Assembly (NCBI GenBank): GCA_036517335.1
Contig: DATDWX010000027.1
Coordinates: forward strand, 24,192 to 88,191
Direction of reading: 5' to 3'
DNA from: Minisyncoccota bacterium
GTDB lineage: Bacteria; Patescibacteriota; Minisyncoccia; Phycocordibacterales; UBA2100
DNA length: 64,000 nucleotides
A program made the translations under genes and the position numbers. Of the stretch, positions 20,944 to 64,000 are shown piece after piece. The notes under the pieces were generated by a model. That model saw only the letters and a program-made list of their open reading frames with translations, was not told the DNA's origin and searched no databases. Within the stretch, counting starts at the first letter, position 1; every line of letters begins with the position of its first letter.

Positions 20944-23900
20944 ATGAATAGAGTCCCTAAGCGGGCTTTCGTTGTCGTCCTTGCTACGGCTGTTATTGTT
21001 GGTAATGCGGTGTCGGCGTATGCGGTGGTTATTCCTCCCACTGCACCCGGCCAATCCGTTTTCACCATCGGCAATCAAACGCCAAGAGTTGACGGCTCCA
21101 CGGGCGCACTTACAAGGCACATTTCTCTCGATATTCCGCCGGGGCGAAGCGGATTGCAACCTGATATTTCGCTCGATTACAACAGTCAGAACACCGAGCA
21201 AGAAAGCCTGGTCGGGTATGGTTGGACGCTATCGATCCCGTATATCCAAAGGCTCAACAAGACCGGTTCGCAGAACATGTATGGTCCAAATGCGTACTTC
21301 ACGTCCTCCTTCGACGGTGAGCTCGCAATTTCAGATACAGGGACTTCCACCTCTATGACCGTTTTGGTGGTGGCCGGTGGCGGAGGCGGCGGTAGTGATG
21401 GCGGAGGTGGAGGTGGGGGTGGAGTCAAAACAGTCACTATTCCTATTACAACGCCCCAAGCATATTCAGTCACTGTCGGAAGTGGGGGCACTGCCGGATC
21501 TGCCGGTGCCGGAACGCACGGTGGTCAGGGCGGGGATTCAGTTTTCGACAGTACCACTGCGCACGGGGGCGGATATGGCGCTGCACCAAATGGCGACACA
21601 AACCATCCGGCTGCTGGTGGGAGTGGCGGGGGTGCGGGGTATGGCAACAGCACCTCCGTCCCTACAGCAGGTGGTGCGGGTACTGCTGGCGAGGGAAATA
21701 ATGGCGGTGGCGGTTTGAATGGAGTGTCATCGTATGGTGCCAGCGGAGGCGGTGGTGGGGCAGGTGCTGCGGGCGCTGATTCTCCAGGGGGTGACACAGG
21801 GGCAGGTGCGGGAGGCACCGGTACTTCATCATCAATAAATGGCACTGCGACGTATTATGGAGGTGGAGGGGGAGGCGGTGGATTGCAAGGTGCCTACGGT
21901 GGAAATGGAGGCAACGGCGGCGGAGGCGGTGGCGCAAGTGGAAGTGGCACGCAGGGCACCGGCGGTAGCAACGGGGGCGCAAATGGCACGAACAGTTCAA
22001 ATGGTACCGGTGGAGCCGGCGGTACAAACTCCGGCGGAGGCGGAGGCGGAGGAGGTTTTCAATCAGACTACGGACCGGGCGGCGCGGGTGGTTCGGGCAT
22101 CGTCATTATCTCGGCTCCTGTCGGAGCGATCACATCCGCAACGGGCGGAACTCATACGACCGCGGGAGACAATGATGTATGGACGTTCACCGCTAGTGGC
22201 ACATTTACCATTGTCAGTGTTGCCGACGGCGCTTCAGATTCGCCAGCTTCATCAACCTATCGCGCCCGGGTAGACGACGGATCATTTCGCTCATACTCAT
22301 ATGCCACCTCGAGCAATTCATGGACGATGTACGATAAGAAGGGGACTCGATACCTTTTTGGTGCGAGCAGTCAGGGTCAGCAGAGCGCCACCACAAGTCC
22401 GAGCAGTGTATATAAATGGATGCTCGAAGAAGTACGCGACACCAACGACAATTATATTTCCTATACATACTTGAAAGATGAGAATCAGATATATCCGTAC
22501 CAAATCAAGTACACGGGCAATGGCGTTTCCGACGGTCCGAGTACTATTACAATTGCCACATCCACCAGAAGCGACCAGGCGGTAAGCTATAAATCCGGAT
22601 TCAAGGTCTTGACCGCGTATCGCATCTCCCAAATTACCGCGACTTTCAATAGTACAAACGTGCGCCAGTGGGCACTTGGATACGGTACCGGCAACAATGG
22701 CTCGCGCTCACTTCTCACAAGCATTCAAGAAACCGGCTGGAATGACGCAGGCACTCAAACCACGCTCCCTGCCGCGACCTTCGAGTATGTCAGCACCACC
22801 ACGCCGTTCTACGGGCCCAATCTTGGTACCAATGTTGTAGGTTCTGCGTACGTCGTTGCTGATTCCGAGGGGGACGGCATAAATGGCATCAGCATATTGT
22901 ATCTGGACGGGGGGAGTAATAAAGGAAAGATCATAAGTCCTGACGGCAACACCACAACAAATTTGACATCCCCAGCGCCACCTGAAGAGTGGTCGAATAG
23001 TGGGGGAGGGGCCCCGCTACCCACCTATTTGGCTGATGAGCGCGGCGTGCGCTATCTCGACGTTAACGCTGACGGGAAGCCAGACGTGGTGCGCGGCATC
23101 AAAGATGATTATGCGGCCACGACCACCAAGCAAATATATGAAAATACGTATGCCGCAACATCAACCTACGGCTGGACCAATGGGATCTCATGGAGTGGAA
23201 CCATTCCGGAATTCGCATACAAAAGCGATTCCACGCATAGTTGGACGACGGGTATTTTCGGGGATATCAATGGCGATGGCTTGCCCGATTATGAAGAGTC
23301 GCTCAACAACACCGGCGGCGCCATTACCAACGGCGCATATTTGGGCAATGGTACTGCATGGGATGCTGCTACCACCACCATATTCGCAGCCATGAATGTC
23401 ATGCCGGATTCTGTAAGCGGCCCGACAGTCTACAATCCACAACTGATCGATATCAACGGCGACAGTCTCGCCGATTGGGTGTCTTCGGACAGTTCTAATA
23501 CCTACGTACAGCTCAACACCGGGACGGGCTGGGTATACGACACCCGCTGGATCATCGCCACTTCCACGCTCTATCATTCCACTTCACCAGGCAACACCTA
23601 CTACGACCGTGGCATTCGGTTTATGGATATGAACGGCGATGGGCTGCCCGATTTTGTGCGTGCTTATGCCAACGCCCCCTTTACCGGTAGTGTCACCGAG
23701 CCAGAAATTGAGGTGGCAACGATAAGCTTGGTGCTTCTCAATACCGGGTCCGGATGGGCTACCAGTACTGCATACACTCTCGCCCCGATCGCATCCCCGT
23801 ATCATGATTCCGGCACGTCGTGGACAAGCGGGGTGATCGTCTACAACGAATATGCAAATTGGATAGGCAATGGCCAGATGCAACAAGACGTGCTTGCGAC

Positions 23901-26900
23901 CACGACCTCATCCAAGGGGGGTAGTACGACGGTTTCCTACGGATTGACGACGCAAACGAGCGCGAATACACAGCTGCCCTATGCACTGCTGACGGTCAAT
24001 TCAATTACAGATCACGATGGTCGCGGGAGCAATGAACGAACCGATTACGCATATTCGGGTGGGTTGCAATACCTTCCTTCCAATGTGTACGACCGCAAAT
24101 TTGCAGGCTTTGCAAGCACCACCGAAACGCGCCCCGACAAAACGACTGTCCGGTATTACCATCAAGGCACTCTTATGCAAACCGCGCTCGGCGAGCAGAG
24201 CAACGGATACGCCCACATCAATCATCCGTTCCGCGAAGATGTGTTTACTCCCAGCGGTACATCGGTACAAAAGACCTTCTATCGGTGGGACCCGTATACC
24301 AATGCGAGCAGCACACTCATTCTTCTCGGTAGGAAGTTGGAGCAAAACTATGCGAGCAATGGCACGCACCGCGATAAGGATACGGATTATGCATACGCGA
24401 CCAGTACGGGAGATATAATACGCATCAACGATTTCGGCGAAGTGAGCGGCAATTCCAACGGCACATTCAGCGACATTTCAGGCGATTCCCGCACTACGCG
24501 CTTTACCTATGCCGCGAGCAGCTCGGTATTCATGAGTGTCCCTATCCAAAAGACATTGCTCGACAACAGTTCCGCTACGAGTACTGATACGAAACTCTAT
24601 TACGACTCGCTTGCATTTGGGTCGGTGGGGCGTGGGAATCAGACAATGCAGAAAGATTGGATCTCGGGTGATACCTACGCTTCTACCACAAGAGCCTACA
24701 ACACATACGGCCTCGCGAGCAGCTCGACGGATAGGGGTGGCAACCTCACTTCCTACGTGTACGACAGCTTCAACCTATATCCCGCCACGAGCACCAATGC
24801 GTCTTCGCAATCCACACGCTTCACCTACAATTATTCAAACGGCAAGACAGCCACGACGACAGATCCAAATACCGCAATAGCCAAAAATATGTACGATGGC
24901 GTCGGACGACTAACAGAAATGTATCAATCCGACACCTCTAATCCGAGCACACTCGTTACCAAGGCCACCTACACGTTCACCGACAGCACGTCCACACCCT
25001 CTTTGATACGAGTTACGCAATACCTCAACTCCGCGACGACGACCGATACCTACACCTTTTATGACGGTCTGAACCGCCCCATTCAGGAGCGCAAATCCAC
25101 AGAGACCGCCGGCACCTACGCGACCACTGATCGCATCTACCACAGGGTGGGCAACCTGGCCTCGACAACGCTTCCGTATTTCTCATCGGGCACCTCGCTT
25201 ACGACAGCCACGAGTACCACCGCCCTCTATACCGAATTTCTCTACGATCCACTCGGTCGTCCCACGAAGGTCTCCAACTCTGTGGGCAGCACCACGAATA
25301 CATACGGGAAGTGGACGACCACTACGGTTGATCCAAACGGCAGTATCAAAGAGTATCTACTTGATGCGTACGGCAATCTCTCGCAGGTCGTGGAGCACGC
25401 TACCTCCACTGCGACCACGACGTATACATACGACGCTGCGGGCAACCTAGCATTGATCACCGATGCAGCATCGAGCACACGCGCTTTCACCTACGATGGA
25501 TTGGGGAGACGCACGGGCGCGCAGGATCTCCACGCGAGCGGCGATGCAACCTTCGGATCATGGTCGTACAGCTACGACGATGTAGGCAACCTTACGTCGC
25601 AGACCGATCCCAAGGCCCAGGTCATCACGCACACATTCGACGCGCTCAATCGCATGGTAACGGAAGCTTTGAGCGGCTCCGGAGTGCAGATCACCAACAC
25701 CTATGATTCATGTACCTACGGCGTCGGGCGACTCTGCAGCGCATCGAGTACTGCTGCACTCAATGCCTATGAATACGATGTGCTCGGCCGCACCAGCATT
25801 GCCACCAGTACCGTCAACGGTACTGGATATGCGACGGTGTATGGATATGATCGCCAGGGCAACCAAACATCCATTACATACCCGGACAAACGAGAAGTGA
25901 GCTACGTCTACAACGCCGCGGGTCTGATGAACTCGGTCAGTACCAAGCCGGTGGGCGGCGCATACTCGTCCGTTCTATCTGCCACGACGTACGCACCGGA
26001 TGGTAAACCTCTTACGAAACTCTTCGGCAACGGCGTCGAAACCACCTATACCTACGATCCCCTTCTGCAGTATCGTCTAACCCGGATGTTGACGGGCACC
26101 AATGCGGGCACGTCCACGGAAATCGTGCCGCTGGTGAGCGACCCGGTGGCGTACTGGAATCTGGATGAATCAAACGGGGTTGCCTACGATGCCATTGCCT
26201 CCAACGACCTCACCAACAACAATAGTGTTTCCTACGCGACCGGTACGATAAGCAATGCCGCTACCTTCGTAGCTGCCAATTCGCAATCGCTCCAGAAACT
26301 CACCGCTTCTGGCTTACCCACAGGTAGTGAGTCCATCGCCGCGTGGGTGAAATTCACGTCGCTTCCTGTAAGTACATGGTATGGCATCGTGGAGCAGGGC
26401 AACGCCGCGACGTCTTCAAAATTTGGCCTCACGATCACCGATGATCCGGTAGGGGCAGACAACCTCTACTCGTTGGCCATTGATCACTTCGGCGGCACCA
26501 ATGTGTATAGCGATGCCTGGTCTGGCGTGGCGACCGGCACATGGTATCACGTGGCCGCTACCTATGATGGGACCAATTTTCGCTGGTATGTAAACGGATC
26601 GCAGCTCGGCGCGGCAAAGGGCGCAGGCACGCAGACGACCAGCGGCGCGCAGATCGTGGTGGGAGCCATGATAGACAGCTCCTTGGAAAACTTCCTCAAC
26701 GGTTCCGTGGATGAGGTCGGGGTGTGGGACAACGTCTTGACGCAAAGCGAACTCACGGCGCTCTACAACGCGGGCGCGGGAGAGGCATATCCCTTCGGCA
26801 CTACCACGGTCAGCACGTATGGCTACGCCAACCTCATTCAGGATTTGAATTACACGTATGATGCGGTGGGCAACATTACGAATGTCACGAATAATTCCAC

Positions 26901-33888: not shown

Positions 33889-35631
33889 ATGCAGCGCGTT
33901 CGTCATCTTTGGGGTCTGTACCAGAAGGCCTTCGGGGCCTATACCTGGCAAATAGTGCTTATCATGGTGCTCGCGTTTGTCTCGAGCATTGTGGAGGGTA
34001 TCGGGATAAGCGCCATTATTCCGATATTTAGCTTCGTCGGCGGCACGCCGGGCGCTGCGGGCGACACCATCTCGCACATCATCGCGGGGATGTTCTCTTT
34101 TTTCCACATTACCTACACTTTCCGGATGCTGCTCATCTTCATCGGAGTCCTCTTCGTGCTCCGGATCTTCTTTATATTCGGCATCCAGTATGTGACGGGC
34201 TACATCATTTACAACTACGAGCGTGATCTGCGTCTGCGACTTTTCGGCGGGACGCTGGAGAGCCGTTGGTCGTACCTCTCGCAGCAGAAGGTCGGCAATT
34301 TGGAGCAGCTCCTCACTACGAATACCAGCAATGCCTCACAATTCTTCGGCAATATTTCCGCCTCCGCTCTCATATGCACGAAAGTCTTGATCTACATTGT
34401 GATCGCGATCAACATTTCGTGGTGGATCGCGCTGTTTAGTTTGCTCGCCGGATTCTTGATGGTCTTCGTGTTGCGCCCGATCTTCTATAGAGATCGCGCG
34501 ATAGCGACCGACGCGGAGCGCACCAATCGCTCGCTCGCACATTTCGTCAGCGAGCATGTCATCGGCATGAAGGCGATCAAGGCGATGGCGCTTGAAGAGC
34601 CGGTCAAAGCGCGCGGACGTGAGTTCTTCGACCTGACGCGTACGCTGAATCTGCGCGCCCGAGTGATGGGCGGCTATGTACAGGTACTAGTGCAAAGCGC
34701 GGGCATCGTTTTCGTCGCCATCACCTTCGCTATCATGTATCGTTCGCCGGGCTTCACGCTCGCTTCCTTTGCGGTCATCGTGTACGCCATCAATCAGATA
34801 TTCGCGCAGATACAGTCCGGCCAAAATCAGCTCCACACCATTGTGCGGCTCCTTCCCTATATTGGCGAAGCGTTTGCATATGGCGATCGCACGAAGGCGA
34901 ATGCAGAGGCGCGTGGCGGGGGCGCTCCGTTTGCTCTCCAGCAGAGCATTGAATTTCGCCACGTATCGTTTACATACCCAGAGCGCGGGAGTGTCTTGTC
35001 TGATGCGGATTTCCAGATCCACAAGGGTGAGCTACTTGGTATAGTGGGTCCCTCCGGCGCGGGCAAATCCACGCTTGCCGATTTGCTCCTGCGGCTTATC
35101 GAACCCACGAGTGGCATGATCGTCGTCGATGGGCGCGATGTGCAAGAAATATCAGTCGAGGCGTGGAGGTCGCATGTAGGCTATGTGGCGCAGGATGCGG
35201 TCTTGCTCAATGATACGATCGAGCAGAATATTCGCTTCTACAATGCGAAGGTGGGAATGGCGGATGTGGTCGCGGCGGCAAAGCTCGCGAATATTCACGA
35301 ATTCATCGAGACGCTGCCGCGGGGATACGAGACGGTGATCGGGGATCGTGGCATCCTCCTCTCCGGAGGCCAGCGTCAGCGGGTGGCGCTTGCGCGCGTC
35401 TTGGCGCGCAAGCCAGAGCTTCTCGTTTTGGACGAAGCCACCAGCTCGCTCGACCAAGAATCCGAACGCGCCATCCAAGCGGCGGTCGAAGGACTGCGCG
35501 GCGGCATCACGATCGTCGTCATCGCGCACCGGCTCTCGACCATCGAAGGAGCTGATCGTTTCATCGGGATCAAAGATGGAGTTGTTTCCGAATTGTCTCG
35601 CGACGAGGTGTTTGCAACCCGTTCCGTATGA
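33889..35631 (+). CDS. ABC exporter, fused permease and ATPase
   Basis: Six N-terminal TM helices, then Walker A GPSGAGKST, signature LSGGQRQRVALARVL, and Walker B LLVLDEATSSLD. Start taken at the internal Met MQRVRHLWGLY. Confidence 0.8.
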   Translation: MQRVRHLWGLYQKAFGAYTWQIVLIMVLAFVSSIVEGIGISAIIPIFSFVGGTPGAAGDTISHIIAGMFSFFHITYTFRMLLIFIGVLFVLRIFFIFGIQYVTGYIIYNYERDLRLRLFGGTLESRWSYLSQQKVGNLEQLLTTNTSNASQFFGNISASALICTKVLIYIVIAINISWWIALFSLLAGFLMVFVLRPIFYRDRAIATDAERTNRSLAHFVSEHVIGMKAIKAMALEEPVKARGREFFDLTRTLNLRARVMGGYVQVLVQSAGIVFVAITFAIMYRSPGFTLASFAVIVYAINQIFAQIQSGQNQLHTIVRLLPYIGEAFAYGDRTKANAEARGGGAPFALQQSIEFRHVSFTYPERGSVLSDADFQIHKGELLGIVGPSGAGKSTLADLLLRLIEPTSGMIVVDGRDVQEISVEAWRSHVGYVAQDAVLLNDTIEQNIRFYNAKVGMADVVAAAKLANIHEFIETLPRGYETVIGDRGILLSGGQRQRVALARVLARKPELLVLDEATSSLDQESERAIQAAVEGLRGGITIVVIAHRLSTIEGADRFIGIKDGVVSELSRDEVFATRSV

Positions 35632-35912
35632 ATCCCGTTAGAGATGACAAAAGTTGGTATACCTACGTACTTCGGAGTTTGAAGGACGGTAATTGGTACA
35701 CCGGTTTTACGAACGATCTACGGAAGCGCTTCAAGCAGCACAACGACGGGCTTACGTTCTCGACCAAAGGACGTCGTCCGTTAGAGGTGATATATTACGA
35801 AATGTGTAGAAATGAGCATGATGCTCGGTCGAGGGAATTATTTCTTAAATCTGGTATGGGAAAGCGTTATTTGCAAAACCGCTTGAAGCGCTTCCTATCT
35901 CTAACGGGATGA
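35628..35912 (+). CDS. GIY-YIG nuclease-domain protein (94 aa)
   Basis: SWYTYVLRSLKDGNWYTGFTNDLRKRFKQHN is the GIY-x10-YIG motif with the conserved R and N. The ATG overlaps the ABC transporter's TGA, and its own TGA overlaps the next gene's ATG. Confidence 0.75.
   Translation: MNPVRDDKSWYTYVLRSLKDGNWYTGFTNDLRKRFKQHNDGLTFSTKGRRPLEVIYYEMCRNEHDARSRELFLKSGMGKRYLQNRLKRFLSLTG
35632..35910 (+). mobile_element. small element bounded by 12-bp terminal inverted repeats ATCCCGTTAGAG / CTCTAACGGGAT, carrying the GIY-YIG gene and inserted at an ATGA gene junction
   Basis: TIRs at 35632-35643 and 35899-35910. The same termini and the same flanking ATGA...GAAATT context recur at 53515-53631. Confidence 0.6.
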
Positions 35913-37312
35913 AATTATTCTTGATCCAACTCGGGGAGATGGTGCCGGCGCAAGTAGATGTGGCGCGCATGCTCAAGAAAAATCACGAGATCCAATACTG
36001 GGTGCGGATGGAAAATCATTTCGCGGTCTACAGAGAGGAATTCGAGGGGACGTTCTTCCAGGATTATCTCGATGCGATTCAAGGGATTCCGGCTCGTGGG
36101 ATCGATCTGTACAAGTACGAGCCGTGGAGCGCGCACGATATCGCCGCATACGGGGATATCGAATCCGAGTACATGACCATGGCCGACAAATTGCATCCTC
36201 ATTGGTCTGTGAATCAGCGGAAGGATTTGTATTTCGATCTGCTTCGATACTGGGGCGGCATATTGGATGAATTCAAGCCCGATTGCATCGTTATCCTTGG
36301 GGTTCCGCATCACGAGTATGATTTCGTTTTGTACAAAATTGCGAAGCGCCGAGGTATACGTACGATCATCCTAGAGAACACGTTCAGAGGAGGTCGCTAC
36401 GTGTTGTATGAGGACTATACGGTTGGAAGCGAAAAATTTCTGATAGGGAATGGAGCGCGGGAGACAACACTTGAACAGCTCTCCCCTGAAATGCGTGCCT
36501 ATTTTGAACGCGTATCGCTGGGAGAGAACCCGGCGCCGCCCTACGTACAGGCATTCCACGAACGTCGTACGACCATTAACGCTATTCGCCGTTGGAATCA
36601 CGCCATCGTGCGATTCATTAAAGATCGCTCGCTCTTCGAACGTGCGATCTTGAAGGTGCTCAAGATGATGAAGCCATCTCTTAAGGATGAGCACCATGCA
36701 AACGAAAAAGCACCCAATTTCGATAATTCCTACGCGTATTTTCCCCTGCACTACCAGCCAGAATTTACTACGAGTCCCGCCGGAGGGCTCTATGTAGATC
36801 AAATGCACGCCATTAAAACGATTGCCGCGGCACTTCCAGAGGGATGGGAGTTGTATGTTAAAGAACACCCCGGCCAACTCGCCGTGCACGGCGGCAATTT
36901 TACGCCTGCACGCTACAGCGGCTTCTATTCAGCAATTGTCGCTATCCCGCATGTGCGACTTGTTCCGCTTGAGACAAATACGTACAAACTCATTGATCGA
37001 GCTCGGACGACCGCAACGATTGCGGGCACTGCCGGATGGGAGAGTATCTTGCGCGGCAAAACTGCACTCGTTTTGGGTTATCCGTGGTATTTGCAAGCGC
37101 CGGGCGTGCTTCGCGTATCGAGCGTCCCCGAATGTCGTAATGCTTTTGAAAAAATCACAGGTGGGTTTGTACCGCGGCAATCCGATATTCTCAGCTACCT
37201 CGATCGCGTCGACCAGGCGAGTTTGTACGGGGACTTACTTTATATAAAGACCGACACTCCGCAGTATGCGCAGGATATGTACACGGCTATCGAGGAGATG
37301 CTTGCATCTTGA
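35909..37312 (+). CDS. capsule polysaccharide biosynthesis protein (Capsule_synth / KpsS-KpsC-LipA family-like)
   Basis: YFPLHYQPEFTTSPAGGLYVDQMHAIKTIAAALPEGWELYVKEHPGQL is the family hallmark. Confidence 0.6.
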   Translation: MKLFLIQLGEMVPAQVDVARMLKKNHEIQYWVRMENHFAVYREEFEGTFFQDYLDAIQGIPARGIDLYKYEPWSAHDIAAYGDIESEYMTMADKLHPHWSVNQRKDLYFDLLRYWGGILDEFKPDCIVILGVPHHEYDFVLYKIAKRRGIRTIILENTFRGGRYVLYEDYTVGSEKFLIGNGARETTLEQLSPEMRAYFERVSLGENPAPPYVQAFHERRTTINAIRRWNHAIVRFIKDRSLFERAILKVLKMMKPSLKDEHHANEKAPNFDNSYAYFPLHYQPEFTTSPAGGLYVDQMHAIKTIAAALPEGWELYVKEHPGQLAVHGGNFTPARYSGFYSAIVAIPHVRLVPLETNTYKLIDRARTTATIAGTAGWESILRGKTALVLGYPWYLQAPGVLRVSSVPECRNAFEKITGGFVPRQSDILSYLDRVDQASLYGDLLYIKTDTPQYAQDMYTAIEEMLAS

Positions 37313-37313
37313 T

Positions 37314-38318
37314 ATGTATACCATTCCCTTTAATCCTCGGGCGACATCATTGGCGGAGCCGCACGCGGTGGATACAGCGGTCTTCGGCAGTTTGGAAAAA
37401 GACATCACCTACACGTTCGCGGGCAAATCGGCCTTAGCGCTGCTCCTGCGCTATTACCGCGCGAAGGGGTCGCTCCGCGACAGGAGCGACCAGGTCCTTG
37501 TGCCGCAATGGCTCGGCGGACCGGTGTACAACATCATGCAGTATTCGTGTTTTCCAAATGCGTCCTACAACGAGAAAGTGCGCGGGCTTCTGCTCTACCA
37601 TCAGTGGGGATTCCCGCAGGATGTCGACGCTGTGCGCGATTTTTGCGAGCAAAAGAAATTATTCTTGATCGAAGATTGCGCGCACGCGCTCGAAAGCTAC
37701 TACAAAGGGCAACGTGTCGGCACATTCGGCGAGGTCGCTTTCTTCAGTTTGCAGAAATTCTTCCCGAGCGTCGTCGGGGGTGCGGTGTACTCAACGCAGC
37801 GCGACGTACACGATTTCCTCGAAGGAGAATTCAAGAAAGACGACGAAGAGCTAGCCAAAGAAATATTCGCGAACTGTTTTGCCGTCGACACAAATTCCAC
37901 AAAGCGCAACGGGATCAACCTTGAGCGCAACTATATCGTGTATGACAGAATACTGAAGTGTCCGTCCTATGCGCTTGCGGTGGCGCGAGCGCAGATGCAT
38001 GCGGGGGCGCTCGACAAGCGACGAGCCCACTATGAGCTCTATAAGCAGGCATTCGGCGCCGAAAAATATCTTTCGCAATTCATACAGGAGAATGTCGTGC
38101 CGTGGGTGGTTCCGCTTTTCTTCGATGAGGATCGCTGCGCGAGGGTTGCTGCAATGCTAAAGCGCGCGAGCATTGAATCGGGTGTCTACCATTTTGATGT
38201 CAACCGCAACATGCTTGAACCGGACTTCAAATTGTGCGTTCCGGTGCCTTGTCATCAAGGTATGAGCGAAGAGGACGTCGGTCGCGTAATTGGTATTGTA
38301 AAAGAAGCAGTACGCTAA
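37314..38318 (+). CDS. DegT/DnrJ/EryC1/StrS-family (aminotransferase fold) protein
   Basis: LIEDCAHALESYYKGQRVGTFGEVAFFSLQKFFPSVVGGAV carries the PLP-lysine context. It is shorter than typical, at 334 aa. Confidence 0.55.
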   Translation: MYTIPFNPRATSLAEPHAVDTAVFGSLEKDITYTFAGKSALALLLRYYRAKGSLRDRSDQVLVPQWLGGPVYNIMQYSCFPNASYNEKVRGLLLYHQWGFPQDVDAVRDFCEQKKLFLIEDCAHALESYYKGQRVGTFGEVAFFSLQKFFPSVVGGAVYSTQRDVHDFLEGEFKKDDEELAKEIFANCFAVDTNSTKRNGINLERNYIVYDRILKCPSYALAVARAQMHAGALDKRRAHYELYKQAFGAEKYLSQFIQENVVPWVVPLFFDEDRCARVAAMLKRASIESGVYHFDVNRNMLEPDFKLCVPVPCHQGMSEEDVGRVIGIVKEAVR

Positions 38319-57706: not shown

Positions 57707-60202
57707 ATGAGTTTCTGGAGCGGACTTTTTGGGAACGATAATAGTGGTGCCTTGAAGCGGGCGGAGCCTATTATTGCTGCCACAAATGTGCTTGGGGAGG
57801 AGATGCGCGCGCTGTCCGATGAAGCGCTGAAGGCAAAGACTGCTGATTTTAAAGCGCGGTTAGCGACCGGAGAAGGGCTGGACGCGCTCGCACCGGAGGC
57901 CTTCGCTGCCGTACGCGAAGCCTCGCGCCGTACGCTCGGGCAGCGGCACTTCGACGTACAACTCCTTGGCGGCCTCGTGCTTCACCAAGGCAATATCGCC
58001 GAGATGCGCACCGGTGAGGGGAAAACGCTCGTCGCCACCCTCCCGGCATACCTCAACGCGCTCACTGGCGAGGGTGTACACGTGGTGACGGTCAACGACT
58101 ACCTCTCGCGCCGCGATGCGGTGTGGATGGGGCAGATCTACCACGCGCTCGGTATGAGCGTGGGCGTATTGAATCACGAGTCGTCATTTCTTTACGATCC
58201 TTCGCACGTCTCTACCGAATCCCTGGCGCAGGAGGAAGCTTCGGTGGACATCACGGGAAGTTTCAAGGTGATGCACGATTTCTTGCGGCCAGTTTCGCGC
58301 TCTGAAGCCTACGCCGCCGACATTACGTATGGCACCAACAACGAGTTCGGTTTCGACTACCTTCGCGACAATCTAGAATACGAAAGCTCCAGTCTTCGCC
58401 AAGCCCGCGGGTATCATTTTGCTATCGTAGACGAGATCGACTCTATTTTGATAGATGAGGCACGAACGCCTCTCATTATCTCTGCGCCGGTTTCCGACGC
58501 GGGGGCGCTCTACGGCCAATTCGTGCAGATCGCAAACACACTTACGCCAGAAGAGGACTACACGGTTGATGAGAAGCATAAGCAAATATCCCTGACAGAT
58601 GCGGGCATCGAAAAAGCGGAAAAAGCGCTTGGAGTGGAAAATATTTACACCGATGCCGGTATCAAATACGTCCATCATCTCGAAACGGCTGTGCGCGCCA
58701 AGGCGCTCTATGAGCGCGATAAGGCATATGTAGTACGTGACGGGCAGGTGGTGATCGTGGATGAGTTTACCGGTCGCATGCAACCGGGGAGGCGCTGGAG
58801 TGAAGGCCTGCATCAGGCGATCGAGGCCAAAGAAGGTGTAGCCGTGCAGCAGGAATCGCGCACGTTTGCTTCGATTACATTTCAAAATTACTTTCGCCTC
58901 TATGGCAAGCTCGCTGGTATGACGGGCACCGCGGCCACCTCATCGGAAGAGTTTTACAAAGTGTATGGTCTTAATACCGTCATCATTCCCACCAACAAGT
59001 CCCAGGCGCGTGCCGATCGAGATGATCTGATATTTCAGACAGAAGATGGAAAAATGCGCGCTATCGCGAGGAGAGTGAAGGAACTTCACGACAAAGGGCA
59101 ACCAGCACTCGTTGGTACTGCATCAGTTGAGCGCAACGAACTTCTCTCGTCGTACTTTAGACAAGAGGGGATTCCGCATGAAATATTGAATGCCAAGAAT
59201 CACGAACGAGAAGGGGAGATCATCGCACAGGCAGGTCGCAAGAGTGCAGTCACGATCGCGACCAATATGGCAGGCCGTGGCGTCGATATTAAGCTCGGTG
59301 GCAATCCTGGGAGCGATGCGGAGTATGAGGAAGTAAAGAAATTTGGCGGCCTCTTCGTGCTCGGGACGGAGCGGCATGAGGCACGTCGCATAGACAACCA
59401 GCTTCGTGGCCGCTCCGGCCGCCAGGGCGATCCCGGGGAGACGCAATTCTTCGTGTCGCTGGAAGATTCACTCATGCGCGTCTTTGCATCCGACGTCATC
59501 AAGCGCGTGATGGGCACGTTCAAGATCCCAGAAGACGAGCCCATTCACAATTCGATGATCACGCGTGCTCTTGAAAAGGCACAAACTCGCATTGAGGAAT
59601 TAAATTTCGATGCGCGCAAACACGTACTTTCGTACGATGATGTGTTGAACATCCAGCGTCAGAGTATCTATAGTCGACGGCGAACGTTGCTAACGGGTGG
59701 TACTGCCGATATTGACGCCGAGCTTGATCGGATTTTCGCGGAGAAGGGAATAATGGGCGAAATGGGGGAAAGGGGAGAGCAATTCTATGCCGCGACACGT
59801 CGATTTCTTCTGCAAACGATTGATTCACTCTGGGTCGAGCATCTTGAGGCGATGGAATATTTAAGGAGCAGCGTGAATTTGCGTGCGTATGGCCAACGCG
59901 ATCCATTGGTCGAATACAAAAAAGAAGGCCTCAAGTTGTTCCAAGGAATGGAGGAGACATATAAGCTGCATGTGGTGCAAATGCTCCCCAATGTCCTCTC
60001 GGGGGGTATCTCCATGCCACAGGAGAATAGGGTTATCAACAAGGCCGTACAAGTCATCACCGCCGTGAACTCGCCAGCCGCGAAAAGGGAATATGGGCGA
60101 AATGACCGAGTGCGAATTACCAACGGGATCGAGGAGCAGGAGATGAAATACAAAAAAGCCGAATCACTCCTCAAGAGTGGACAATGGCGCATTGTCGTTT
60201 AG
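57707..60202 (+). CDS. secA: preprotein translocase ATPase SecA
   Basis: LHQGNIAEMRTGEGKTLVATLPAYLNALTGEGVHVVTVNDYLSRRDA, and the DEAD-like motor motifs (DEIDSILIDEARTPLIIS). 831 aa. Confidence 0.9.
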   Translation: MSFWSGLFGNDNSGALKRAEPIIAATNVLGEEMRALSDEALKAKTADFKARLATGEGLDALAPEAFAAVREASRRTLGQRHFDVQLLGGLVLHQGNIAEMRTGEGKTLVATLPAYLNALTGEGVHVVTVNDYLSRRDAVWMGQIYHALGMSVGVLNHESSFLYDPSHVSTESLAQEEASVDITGSFKVMHDFLRPVSRSEAYAADITYGTNNEFGFDYLRDNLEYESSSLRQARGYHFAIVDEIDSILIDEARTPLIISAPVSDAGALYGQFVQIANTLTPEEDYTVDEKHKQISLTDAGIEKAEKALGVENIYTDAGIKYVHHLETAVRAKALYERDKAYVVRDGQVVIVDEFTGRMQPGRRWSEGLHQAIEAKEGVAVQQESRTFASITFQNYFRLYGKLAGMTGTAATSSEEFYKVYGLNTVIIPTNKSQARADRDDLIFQTEDGKMRAIARRVKELHDKGQPALVGTASVERNELLSSYFRQEGIPHEILNAKNHEREGEIIAQAGRKSAVTIATNMAGRGVDIKLGGNPGSDAEYEEVKKFGGLFVLGTERHEARRIDNQLRGRSGRQGDPGETQFFVSLEDSLMRVFASDVIKRVMGTFKIPEDEPIHNSMITRALEKAQTRIEELNFDARKHVLSYDDVLNIQRQSIYSRRRTLLTGGTADIDAELDRIFAEKGIMGEMGERGEQFYAATRRFLLQTIDSLWVEHLEAMEYLRSSVNLRAYGQRDPLVEYKKEGLKLFQGMEETYKLHVVQMLPNVLSGGISMPQENRVINKAVQVITAVNSPAAKREYGRNDRVRITNGIEEQEMKYKKAESLLKSGQWRIVV

Positions 60203-63200
60203 AGGATCCGCTGTTGTACTCGTACTCGTGCTATCCTCTGGCGTCGTGGTCGTCTCGGGCTCCGTTGAGCCGCTTGTGGCGGGCGTAGTCGAACTAGTCG
60301 AATCCGTCGTGGTACTCGTGTCCGTCGGTGTGGGATCGAGGGTTGGATCGGTCTGCGGTAAGCTCGTCGAATCCGGTGCCGGGGCGGGGTTTGGGTCTAC
60401 CACTTCCACTGTACGGGTCGTGGTGCCCACATTTCCCGCAGCATCGGTCGCACTGTATTCAATAGTATGTGTGCCTGCCACAGATGTGTCAATCGTTATC
60501 TGGTCGAGCGTGATCGAAGCTCCTCCATCCACCGAAGCGTGGATGCCGAGGTTTTGGTCTATATCGTCGGAAACGCTCGCGCCCAGATCTACATACGAGT
60601 CGCCGACATTAATGGTGGCTGGGTTGTTGCCGTTGACGGAAAGTACCGGTGGGCTGCTTGCACTGTCGCTTGCGGAGCTCGTCACGCTTGTCGGCGTCGT
60701 GGATGCGGAATCGGCGCTGCTCGAGCTGGCAGCCGAGAGCATCGCCTGCAGTTGGGACTTGGTCACGCAGACGTCATCCAAACAGAGTTTTTTGGCAGTA
60801 ATCGTATCAGCGCTGACGTTAACGGCGGTTATATTCTTCGCGAAAAGATCCTCGATGCCATTGGCCGCACTGGCCAACCATTCTGTGATTCGCGAGAAGA
60901 GGCTCTGGATGAAACCTTGCGCGTACAGATCCGCTGTCGAAGTCGCGGAGGTCGAGGTGGCGTCCGTCGTTGTTGCGTTATAACTTAGGGTGTCGGCCAG
61001 GGAGCCGAGGCGCGACGCGATCGCATTCATCATCCCACCGACAAAGTCTAGCGGACCAGCCTGGTTGGTGGACGTGGCGGAAGTCGCGCTGGTGCCAGAT
61101 AGTCCGACAAAGGCATTCGGCCCTAGGAGGACAAACGCGATAGCATTGATATCGGTCCCTTTTTGCAAATTCATAAAGATCATGACCGTCCCTCCGTCTG
61201 CCTGTGGTGAGCCAGTTGAATCCGTCGAACCAGCGTAATTATCTATTGCAATACCCACGGAATCATCGAATGGCCCTGCCTTCTTGCCCACTCCGGGTAC
61301 GCTCGAGACAGCGATCCGATCGCCGATCGCGATCGGCCCGTTCTCCAGGTTGACCTTCACCGGCACACGGCCGGAGAGTGCTATAGGTCGCTCACCTGTC
61401 GCATTTTGATCGCCGAGTACCTGTCCTGGAAGAGTGGAGATGACACCCGCAAGCGGCGCGCCGTCACTTGCGATAGCCAGCTTCATCGAGACGGGGATTC
61501 CCCTGTCAACTGCCACAATATCTCCCGCGCCCATTAGGGGATTGGAAACGGGGAACATTTCCGCATAGTCATTGCCCGCAGCACTCGGGCTCGAGGTCGC
61601 GTAAATAGTGATGACGATGCCGCCGACTGCACCCGCGCCTCCGGCCAATGTGCCAGCCGCACCACCCGCACCACCCGCACCGACGGCAAGTTTACTCGCC
61701 GTAAGAACGGAAGTACTCGCGACGTTTTGCGAATACGCACCACCACCACCAGAGCCTGCAGAATTGCCATTAGCGGCTCTTGGGCCACTACCACCACCGC
61801 CTGGTGATCCCCCTGTGACACCCGCAGTCCCGGGAACGGTCGGCAGTCCAGCGCCGGCACCACCTCTAGGAGAGTCTCCTCCGCCCCGGACAGCGACGCC
61901 GGGGGTGCCGCCCGTTTCGCCCGCCTGACCGTTTAGGTTCACAGAACCTAAGGATGCAGTTCCCCCAGCGCCCCCTGCTCCGACGCCATCACCCAATGTA
62001 CCACCACCACCACCACCTGCCTTAATAAGCGCGCTTGCACACGCGACCGTACCCTGGGCATAACAGCTGGCAGCTCCGGTCGCGCCATTGTTTGTCGCCT
62101 GTGCGCCCCCGCCCCCGCCCCCGCCCCACCCCTCCACCACATAGTACGCGACGTTGCCCTGAAGGGTGAGTGTGCCTGCACTGAAGCTCGGGTTGCTGTT
62201 CCCTGCACCCGTGAACTGCACGGTAGTGGTACCCGCGGTAGATGTCGCATAGATCGCGGAGAGCTTCGTGATGTACCCGATACAGGCGTTGTTGATAGCA
62301 AAGCACCCCTTTGTGATATTTATGCCACCGCTGAATGTCGTCGTAGCCGCAGCGCCAAATGTGATCGCGCCGTTGGGATCGATCGCTATTGCTGCAGTCG
62401 TGGAGGTGGCGGAGTACGAGGAAGTGGCAACATAGAGAGTATTTCCGATATTACGCAGCGTCCATGCATTTGATGACGCAGTGGTATCAACGAGCGCGAG
62501 CTGCGGACCGGTACTTGAAGCGATGGTAAGGGTCCACTTAGGGGTTGTGGTGCCGATGCCGACATTGCCGGAGGAGTCGATAACAAGACGAGTCGCATTT
62601 GTTCCGGCCGTACGATCAGCGATGGCGAACTTGCCGGCTCCGATAGCAGTATTGCCCGATCCTGTACTCAAAATGCTCCAATCACGGCCGTCGTAACTTG
62701 TATTGCCCGTAAAGAGAAGCTGTGGTCCGTTTGTATCTGTGCTTGCGATCACCGCATGGATCGCGTTGCTGTTGTAGCTCACTCCAGCGCTTTGCACGGC
62801 GAATGTCGCGATTGGACTCGTCGTCCCGATGCCGACATTGCCCCCGCTCGTTATGCGGAATTTTTCCGCATCGCTTCCCGCCGAATCTGTTCGTACGACA
62901 AAATCGCCCGTTGTATTGCCGCCGTTGCGGGCGAATCCGATGCCACCAAGACCGAAGCCATCGACGCTGGGGTCAGAGACGTAAAAACGCAGGAGCGGTG
63001 TGAGTCCGTCCGCATTTGCGCCGGTGCTCTTGGCGTAAAGTTCCTGCGAGCGGACGGTACTGTTGGTAATGGTCGTATTGGTCACGAATTGCGCGGCCGT
63101 CACGTCGGTGGCGCTGCTCACGACCAGGGCACGATTCGGCGTCGTCGTGCCGATGCCGACTCTTTTAAGATAGTCAATGCGCATTGCTTCAGATAATGCC

Positions 63201-64000
63201 CCTGCATTTCCCGTTTGGAAATATAAGGTGCCTTGTTCAGAGCCATCTACTACGTAACTTAGTTGTCCGTTGATGGACGCGGTATTTTTTATGGTGCCAG
63301 CACTATTTTGTGCCTGGAAAAGCATTTGAGCTCCGATACCATTCTCTGCTGTGCCAGTGGTACCGCGCGTGTACACGAGGCTTGGCAGAACGCCTGAAGT
63401 ATCAGCGCTATTGATGAAAACTTGGAAAAGAGAACTCGGTGCCGCCGTACCAATCCCCACATTCCCACTCCCCTGCTGCACCACGAACTGCGAGGAGCCG
63501 ATGGTGAATCCTTGGCCTGTGGCGATGGTGGAGGTGCCGGTGGTAGAAGTAGCAGTAAAGTAAGCGAATGTGGGTCCACTCGTTGCGGTGAGTGTGCTTG
63601 CACTTGCCCACGCGGTGAGCATGCCTGTGGTTCCTCCTGAAAGTGTGGCACTGCTTGAGAGACAAGTGCCCGAGATCGCAAAGCAGCCTGCCGCAAGATT
63701 GAAGCCGTTGGCAGCAGTTGATGTTGCTGCTGCTCCGGAGAGCGCGAGGTACGTCCCCGTCAATCCCCCCGTGAACGTCGTGGTGCCGGTTGCGCCGAAG
63801 GTGGCAGCGCCGGAGATGCCGTTGAAAGCGAGCGCCGCGGTGGTGGAGGTGGCGAGGGCAGAGCTGGTCGCGAGATAGAAGGTGGAGGAAGCGACGCGGA
63901 AGGTCCAAGCGTTGGTGCCGTTGGTGTCAACGAGGGCGAGCTGGGGGCCGGTGGTGGAAGCAGAGGCTCCCACGGTGAGCGCCCAGAAGGGTGTGGTGGT
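60164..64000 (-). CDS. giant secreted Thr/Ala/Ser/Gly-rich surface protein (C-terminal 1269 aa; the N-terminus lies beyond the window) with a glycine-rich module and an Ig-like (DUF5011-type) domain
   Basis: Periodic repeats containing GNVGIGTTSP / TGPQLALVDT. A Gly-rich block at about 61576-62140 (YYVVEGWGGGGGGG...GGIVITIY). An Ig-like segment (VLSVNGNNPATINVGDSYVDLGASVSDDIDQ...TRTVEVVD) near the C-terminus. A Pro/Thr-rich tail. Confidence 0.6.
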   Translation of the reverse strand, partial: TTTPFWALTVGASASTTGPQLALVDTNGTNAWTFRVASSTFYLATSSALATSTTAALAFNGISGAATFGATGTTTFTGGLTGTYLALSGAAATSTAANGFNLAAGCFAISGTCLSSSATLSGGTTGMLTAWASASTLTATSGPTFAYFTATSTTGTSTIATGQGFTIGSSQFVVQQGSGNVGIGTAAPSSLFQVFINSADTSGVLPSLVYTRGTTGTAENGIGAQMLFQAQNSAGTIKNTASINGQLSYVVDGSEQGTLYFQTGNAGALSEAMRIDYLKRVGIGTTTPNRALVVSSATDVTAAQFVTNTTITNSTVRSQELYAKSTGANADGLTPLLRFYVSDPSVDGFGLGGIGFARNGGNTTGDFVVRTDSAGSDAEKFRITSGGNVGIGTTSPIATFAVQSAGVSYNSNAIHAVIASTDTNGPQLLFTGNTSYDGRDWSILSTGSGNTAIGAGKFAIADRTAGTNATRLVIDSSGNVGIGTTTPKWTLTIASSTGPQLALVDTTASSNAWTLRNIGNTLYVATSSYSATSTTAAIAIDPNGAITFGAAATTTFSGGINITKGCFAINNACIGYITKLSAIYATSTAGTTTVQFTGAGNSNPSFSAGTLTLQGNVAYYVVEGWGGGGGGGAQATNNGATGAASCYAQGTVACASALIKAGGGGGGTLGDGVGAGGAGGTASLGSVNLNGQAGETGGTPGVAVRGGGDSPRGGAGAGLPTVPGTAGVTGGSPGGGGSGPRAANGNSAGSGGGGAYSQNVASTSVLTASKLAVGAGGAGGAAGTLAGGAGAVGGIVITIYATSSPSAAGNDYAEMFPVSNPLMGAGDIVAVDRGIPVSMKLAIASDGAPLAGVISTLPGQVLGDQNATGERPIALSGRVPVKVNLENGPIAIGDRIAVSSVPGVGKKAGPFDDSVGIAIDNYAGSTDSTGSPQADGGTVMIFMNLQKGTDINAIAFVLLGPNAFVGLSGTSATSATSTNQAGPLDFVGGMMNAIASRLGSLADTLSYNATTTDATSTSATSTADLYAQGFIQSLFSRITEWLASAANGIEDLFAKNITAVNVSADTITAKKLCLDDVCVTKSQLQAMLSAASSSSADSASTTPTSVTSSASDSASSPPVLSVNGNNPATINVGDSYVDLGASVSDDIDQNLGIHASVDGGASITLDQITIDTSVAGTHTIEYSATDAAGNVGTTTRTVEVVDPNPAPAPDSTSLPQTDPTLDPTPTDTSTTTDSTSSTTPATSGSTEPETTTTPEDSTSTSTTADPLNDNAPLSTLEE

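Follow-up and report, generated by a model that had tools for sequence, protein, structure and literature searches.

Candidate receptor-binding polyglycine and LamG domains inserted in the shell of a putative secreted RHS toxin from a Candidatus Paceibacterota bacterium

Analysis of a 64-kb stretch of DNA (the window, to which all positions refer) from a Candidatus Paceibacterota bacterium of the candidate phyla radiation (CPR) showed one unbroken open reading frame (ORF) at 20944..29733 on the plus strand, with a product of 2929 amino acids (aa). Domain searches and the translation revealed the parts of a TcB-TcC (BC)-type polymorphic toxin, namely SpvB, a probable propeller, RHS shell, Rhs core and payload, into which two glycine-rich modules of the family Gly_rich_2, referred to as polyglycine-rich domains (PGD1 and PGD2), and one LamG domain were inserted. 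The reading that is somewhat favoured is that the protein is a BC-type RHS polymorphic toxin, complete in itself and exported by Sec, and that the PGDs and LamG would serve, by analogy with phage fibre tips, as swappable receptor-binding decorations on a cocoon that has no TcA partner. The individual domains all come from known families, and it is their combination that goes undescribed: literature searches found no description of RHS or cocoon proteins with Gly_rich_2 or LamG insertions.

Domain architecture of the RHS protein

All features of the protein are on the plus strand. The translation suggested a probable Sec signal peptide at aa 1-26 (20944..21021), with a basic n-region, a hydrophobic core and the site SAYA/V. 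The SpvB profile (PF03534, 51.5 bits, cut-off 22) matched in two pieces, profile positions 2-57 at aa 51-108 (21094..21267) and positions 103-183 at aa 439-515 (22258..22488), and PGD1 was found between them at aa 131-422 (21334..22209, site A). An FG-GAP/VCBS-type beta-propeller region was placed at aa ~706-905 (23059..23658), where FG-GAP_3 scored 24.9 bits, under the Pfam cut-off of 26.9; PF13517 was present in most relatives. The main YD/RHS-repeat shell covered aa ~1000-1721 (23941..26106, limits approximate), with 81.6 bits over six stretches for RHS_repeat (PF05593), 51.3 bits for TIGR01643 and a match to Tse5 at aa 1432-1713. A Laminin_G_3/ConA-like lectin domain occupied a shell loop (site F1) at aa 1785-1937 (26296..26754; 73.5 bits, cut-off 27.6, E 2.6e-20, profile positions 8-150 of 151), and pentraxin was among the PDB sequence matches to this region. 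PGD2 followed in a second shell loop (site F2) at aa 2011-2300 (26974..27843). The Rhs-associated core (TIGR03696, 52.9 bits, cut-off 32.5) was located at aa 2476-2561 (28369..28626) and terminated in DPTGR, with the motif DPTG/R. Thus the protein belongs, by its domain matches, to the Gly_rich_2, LamG and Rhs/YD polymorphic toxin groups.

These matches agree with a preliminary description of this DNA, which read the RHS protein as TcB/TcC-fusion-like and as bearing a LamG domain together with two paralogous Gly-rich modules. The order of the parts that it listed was revised at two points: module 1 splits the SpvB domain and does not stand between SpvB and FG-GAP, and LamG and module 2 are two separate insertions, because a YD hairpin (aa 1959-2010, LNYTYDAVGNITNV...FLYDDLHRLTSV, 26818..26973), which aligns with the module flanks in the relatives P0010, P0040 and P0051, divides them. 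Its end of the feature at 28626 marks the end of the Rhs core, while the ORF runs 368 aa further, through a payload and a tail with two transmembrane segments, to 29733. The full-length protein of 2929 aa was absent from the public protein collections, in which only a fragment of 1790 aa (P0001) was present.

Duplication and authenticity of the glycine-rich modules

Both modules exceeded the gathering cut-off of Pfam family PF21722 (Gly_rich_2, 24.3 bits), module 1 with 39.9 bits over profile positions 15-217 of 226 and module 2 with 48.7 bits. They therefore fall in an already curated family and are not new as a domain. The module limits were taken from an iterated profile and include the C-terminal 'TGGxxTTSGxxTIHTFTSSGTFT' strands; a hidden Markov model built from the two sequences failed on the modules of many relatives, which were recovered after three iterations.

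The two ~290-aa modules (42% and 41% glycine) were 81% identical in protein (223/276; BLASTP E 1e-33 with compositional correction) and 72% identical in DNA, which bears out their description as diverged duplicates. The DNA differences were mostly synonymous, and 63 of the 104 aligned Gly-Gly codon pairs used different codons. The Nei-Gojobori method gave ~1.54 synonymous (dS) and 0.145 nonsynonymous (dN) substitutions per site, with a dN/dS of 0.094, which indicates strong purifying selection on both copies. Recent gene conversion between modules 1 and 2 was considered and is ruled out by the dS of ~1.5.

It is very improbable that the Gly-rich blocks are low-complexity artefacts, either assembly errors or disordered linkers. 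Besides the 41-42% glycine, this explanation could draw on an independent MEGAHIT contig from the ENA, which begins at an assembly break within module 1, and on the short imperfect GGN repeats that do exist. However, Tandem Repeats Finder reported only short imperfect GGN arrays and none above 58 nt, and the ENA contig matched window 22039-37699 with 99.955% identity and no gaps, so that module 2 was reproduced with a single substitution. The copies also differ at 28% of nucleotides, both Pfam matches exceed the cut-off, and an AlphaFold2 model of module 2 reached a predicted local distance difference test (pLDDT) score of 92.8. Assembly-artefact and recent-repeat readings are excluded because of the DNA divergence, the codon differences, the short arrays and the independent assembly, the disordered-linker reading is excluded by the confident predicted fold, and the modules are best taken, from their substitution pattern, as real, old and selected duplicates.

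Predicted fold and relatives of the modules

The AlphaFold2 model of aa 2011-2300, made with an alignment of 48 modules, had a predicted template-modelling (TM) score of 0.92 together with the pLDDT given above, and the module is thus confidently predicted to be a folded, compact domain. The model showed beta-strands at both ends, and 78% of the residues were neither helix nor strand by DSSP. The sequence contains 14 Gly-rich motifs, and 20 of the 22 invariant columns in the 48-sequence alignment were glycine. The module is predicted to be a beta-sandwich scaffold carrying ~14 Gly-rich motifs, with packing like the polyglycine lattices of phage tips and of ALK/LTK, and may have a polyglycine-II geometry.

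Foldseek against the PDB ranked the tail tip of Bxb1 (9d93_Qa/Qb, E 8e-5) first and the Pam3 fibre protein gp24 (7ypx_A, E 9e-3, probability 0.99) second, followed by many weak entries of the ALK/LTK glycine-rich domain (E 0.2-3). In the alignment with Pam3 gp24, the C-terminal 'GGxGxxGiviIxY' motif was common to both. Pam3 gp24 consists of a tumour necrosis factor (TNF)-like sandwich and a glycine-rich domain; the latter forms the receptor-binding tip, arranges 12 Gly-rich motifs in a lattice of four layers and is similar to S16 gp38 and ALK (PMC9608196). Phage 'polyglycine-rich' or 'brush' domains have been proposed to bind the host (PMC13252515, PMC13243795, bioRxiv 10.64898/2026.07.24.740622). 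A Foldseek search of BFVD matched 145 proteins of phages or viruses at E<=1e-3; the best of these predicted phage 'glycine-rich domain-containing proteins' had TM-scores of 0.83-0.85, root-mean-square deviations (rmsd) between 2.3 and 2.8 Å and 40-45% identity to the module, and several also bear ConA-like lectin domains. The earlier suggestion of a polyglycine-type binding element is consistent with the confident predicted fold and with these matches to phage receptor-binding tips and to the ligand-binding ALK/LTK domains.

The phage domains (cyanophage Pam3 gp24, 7YPX; Salmonella phage S16 gp38; and the tail-tip PGD chains of mycobacteriophage Bxb1, 9D93, to the extent that their available description goes) are like the module as predicted in having a beta-sandwich that emits many GGGGxGG-type motifs, and unlike them the module has no chaperone gene nearby. 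The TG supradomain of ALK/LTK (TNF-like plus glycine-rich, PF12810) is, from weak Foldseek matches, probably of the same general class, with a polyglycine lattice on a TNF-like sandwich, and PF12810 adjoins PF21722 or RHS repeats in some relatives (P0095, P0103). ALK/LTK differ in being eukaryotic receptors that bind a cytokine and in having no significant sequence match to the module.

A search of the 48-module profile against 1.84 billion cluster representatives returned 42,028 matches at E<=1e-3, of which 28,768 were at E<=1e-10 and 8,374 at E<=1e-30. The matching proteins were typically giant, with up to 18 module copies, and Gly_rich_2 co-occurred among the relatives with LamG, fibrinogen-C, Big_2 and FN3 domains. 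The module is carried by other proteins as well, among them thousands of giant surface and phage fibre-like proteins without RHS repeats.

Insertion sites and variation among relatives

The 57 closest RHS-type relatives came from Kaiserbacteria, Parcubacteria, Taylorbacteria and Bradyrhizobium (9-Mb chromosomes). PF21722 was found in 37 of the 57, and LamG in 10 of the remaining 20. The statement in the preliminary description that such modules are not part of canonical Rhs or Tc architectures thus stands for experimentally characterised proteins only and fails among the closest relatives; proteins that combine Gly_rich_2 with RHS are frequent database entries, and their automatic names are either 'RHS repeat-associated protein' or 'glycine-rich domain-containing protein'.

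Mapping of the Gly_rich_2 flanks in 56 RHS relatives on the query showed about seven insertion sites (query aa 130/433, ~1115/1134, ~1205/1215, ~1383/1392, ~1413/1432, 1717/1958 and 2010/2300). At site A, in SpvB, LamG was found instead of a PGD in P0004, P0005, P0008 and P0013, and in P0010 and P0040 a Gly_rich_2 module occupied site F1, where the window protein has LamG. Since a PGD and LamG can take each other's place in these permissive loops, in one to three copies, the decorations behave as exchangeable specificity cassettes. In the Kaiserbacteria relative P0017, only 13 residues separate the equivalents of query aa 1721 and 2279, which shows that the whole block of LamG and module 2 is inserted in the shell.

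Within single proteins, modules were ~80% identical in the window protein, 73% in P0003, 85% in P0009 and 79% in P0057, while modules at the same site in different relatives were ~50-60% identical and the shell flanks 65-74%. The higher identity within proteins than between relatives, together with the dS of ~1.5, points to repeated lineage-specific intragenic copying and not to ongoing gene conversion. This pattern points to decorations that have a quicker turnover than the shell and are copied anew inside genes.

Proposed function of the inserted domains

Under the favoured reading, the SpvB domain, propeller and YD shell would form a cocoon around the C-terminal payload, which the Rhs core would free by autoproteolysis. 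The two PGDs and LamG would be three autonomous ligand-binding domains spliced into the cocoon loops, most likely projecting from its outer face. The lumen of a BC cocoon holds roughly one unfolded payload, as seen in TcB-TcC structures, and the domains are expected to face outward because there would be no room inside for three folded domains as well (~80 kDa together, estimated from lengths). By analogy with their phage counterparts, the domains would bind surface structures of target cells, with ligands perhaps contacted by the variable tips of the PGDs, and would supply on the cocoon itself the receptor binding that TcA or a secretion machine otherwise provides.

The part order of SpvB, probable propeller, RHS shell, core with aspartyl-protease motif and variable payload is shared with the Tc TcB-TcC cocoons (TcdB2-TccC3, YenB-YenC2). 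Unlike these, the window protein is a single fused chain with a Sec signal peptide, and it had no match at E<=0.01 to PF12256 or PF12255 (TcdB mid-N and mid-C), of which PF12256 occurs in some relatives. In Tc toxins, the receptor-binding-type domains are on TcA, whereas in the window protein they are grafted onto the cocoon. No TcA-size ORF besides the RHS gene was found in the window, which covers 64 kb of this genome and in which the largest other ORF encodes 1269 aa without a TcA domain, and no TcA was found in the loci of three relatives (L002-L004). The solved Rhs cocoons of Vibrio parahaemolyticus RhsP (8H8A) and Pseudomonas aeruginosa Tse5 (8CP6), which were the best PDB sequence matches, have the YD shell and Rhs core in common with the window protein, and unlike them it has no PAAR or VgrG-binding N-terminus. 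Bacillus WapA is a further likeness in its Sec-dependent export. To our knowledge, solved RHS and Tc cocoons are plain shells that are targeted through a partner (TcA or the type VI secretion system, T6SS), and we know of no solved Rhs cocoon with a PGD or LamG domain inserted in its shell loops.

A rather unlikely alternative is that the PGDs and LamG do not recognise the target but bind cell-wall or S-layer glycans of the producer itself, and so anchor the cocoon to its envelope or oligomerise it there, for display in contact-dependent inhibition as with WapA. The RHS gene lies among sugar and surface-polysaccharide genes, including a glycosyltransferase, an epimerase and an O-antigen ligase, glycan binding is common for LamG and ConA-like domains, and no other anchoring domain was among the Pfam matches; TNF-like and Gly-rich units also trimerise in phage fibres (PMC9608196). 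Self-anchoring, however, predicts a fixed number and position of modules, and in the relatives the copy number ranges from none to three, spread over about seven sites, with swaps of PGD and LamG. The modules also diverge faster between relatives (~51% identity) than the shell flanks do, and the phage homologues bind the target cell and not the producer.

It is still less probable that the insertions are purely structural, stabilising, gating or chaperoning the cocoon by bracing the shell or replacing the TcA interface, with no ligand role. From TcB structures it is established that the SpvB domain closes one end of BC cocoons, and the insertion of module 1 in this domain, like the strong purifying selection on both copies, would suit such a role. 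Since P0017 has no insert at F1/F2 and other relatives have no PF21722, the shell does not need PGD or LamG domains, and the same domain is found in the non-RHS surface and phage fibre-like proteins described above.

Several points weigh against receptor-binding decorations on a functional toxin. The matches of module 2 to solved structures had TM-scores of only 0.32-0.40 with an rmsd of 8-9 Å, and the amino-acid term of Foldseek may gain from glycine composition in these comparisons, while the high TM-scores in BFVD compare one prediction with another. Phage PGDs act as the distal tip of trimeric fibres, and the module here is a single-chain insertion in RHS shell loops. No separate immunity gene follows the RHS stop codon in the window. 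The one substitution of the ENA contig in module 2, C>T at window 27697, changes codon 2252 from CAA to TAA, and the gene may therefore be decaying in part of the population; the T variant is either a truncated allele or a read error.

If the decorations do act as proposed, they would explain how Sec-exported RHS toxins of CPR bacteria find their targets with no TcA or T6SS partner gene near their loci. The about seven naturally permissive loops would be usable for engineering Tc/RHS capsules, and a shared mobile polyglycine domain would connect phage tail-fibre tips with bacterial toxins. A wider and more tentative possibility is that the proteins of CPR bacteria and Bradyrhizobium make up a separate class of toxin capsules that stand alone and work without TcA. 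In these, PGDs derived from phage tail fibres and LamG lectins would sit in a fixed set of permissive shell loops and, by copying within a gene and exchange between genes and with phages, would retarget the toxin. Such an RHS cocoon would have receptor binding of a natural plug-and-play kind, possibly for use by episymbiotic CPR bacteria against their hosts.

Homologues with RHS and Gly_rich_2 were found in Bradyrhizobium sp. LCT2 (L002, CP034432.1) and on a metagenome contig (L003), with ~47% identity to the CPR protein. Their neighbours include an integrase gene (L003), genes for TrwB-like coupling proteins (L002 and L003) and restriction-modification genes (L002); such neighbours suggest that integrative elements have moved these genes horizontally across very distant phyla. 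The presence of homologues in cultivable Bradyrhizobium makes the receptor-binding idea testable.

Payload, tail and tip replacement

The payload (aa 2562-2778, 28627..29277) is Gly/Ala-rich, hydrophobic and without a Pfam family, and it recurs on other CPR RHS cores, where it ends mostly at about residue 217. The guanine-cytosine (GC) content was 0.46-0.49 over the payload and tail (window 28600-29800), compared with 0.54-0.67 elsewhere in the gene, and such a low-GC stretch over the tip is typical of horizontally exchanged Rhs tips. Just downstream, an orphan core ORF of 178 aa (29767..30303, plus strand) was 89% identical in protein and 85% in nucleotides to window 27993-28454 (main protein aa ~2349-2508) and stops within the Rhs core. 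The orphan fragment and the fall in GC are classic marks of Rhs tip swapping, and the fragment is taken, from its sequence, as the scar of a toxin-tip replacement, as is common in Rhs toxins.

After the payload, a basic linker (KRIRKRRER...) leads in frame into a domain with two transmembrane segments (aa 2779-2929, 29278..29733). This tail was 49% identical (E 2e-36) to a separately called ORF that follows P0135 in the relative's locus L005 (L005:3880-4400), where the toxin is a degenerate orphan, frameshifted and with stop codons. In P0133 the tail is likewise fused in frame, and an internal Met stands at the point that corresponds to the start of the separate ORF in L005. The tail may be an immunity protein fused to the toxin, an immunity protein made from an internal start, or a piece of the payload. 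As with known Rhs toxins, an immunity gene was seen in relatives; in P0040, an Imm33-like gene lies 3 nt downstream.

Genomic neighbourhood

A small ParD-like ORF and a ParE toxin gene (PF05016, E 3e-18) were found at 30438-30993 on the plus strand, a short way downstream of the Rhs locus. The window also encodes SecA and a GMC oxidoreductase, both of which matched proteins of a Candidatus Paceibacterota metagenome-assembled genome exactly and so place the organism among the CPR/Patescibacteria. Mobile-element genes were present in two of the three relatives' loci.

A third glycine-rich stretch in a 1269-aa surface protein

A surface protein of 1269 aa is encoded at 60164..63973 on the minus strand and contains a Gly-rich stretch at aa 610-791 (61601..62146, minus strand), which had been described as a third relative of the modules. 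Direct tests were all negative: there was no Pfam match at E<=10, hence none at the PF21722 cut-off, BLASTP against module 2 gave an E of 8, hmmsearch with filters off (--max) gave negative bit scores against a profile of 139 modules, and hhalign aligned only 19 columns with a probability of 43%. The relationship held only transitively, through P0126, the closest homologue of the segment (40% identity, 99% coverage, strongly conserved flanks), which carries Gly_rich_2 (44.9 bits, E 1.9e-11) at the aligned position. The window copy is without the first strand unit of this domain in P0126. An AlphaFold2 model of aa 610-791 (five-sequence alignment) had a pLDDT of 48.9, and Foldseek with this low-confidence model returned the same set of Bxb1, Pam3 and ALK at probabilities of at most 0.47, which are weak hints. 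The stretch may be a degenerate Gly_rich_2 relative and thus possibly a degenerate PGD.

After the Gly-rich stretch, the 1269-aa protein has a 'NDYAEMFPVSNPL...GDIVAVD' motif that is conserved in P0126 and P0127, and P0126 showed a weak match to the Peptidase_G2 intramolecular chaperone (E 0.15). A Bact_surface_Ig-like domain (E 7e-13) was found near the C-terminus of the 1269-aa protein. The layout of this protein, as far as it can be read from the motifs and domains, resembles that of phage tail fibres bearing an autoproteolytic chaperone.

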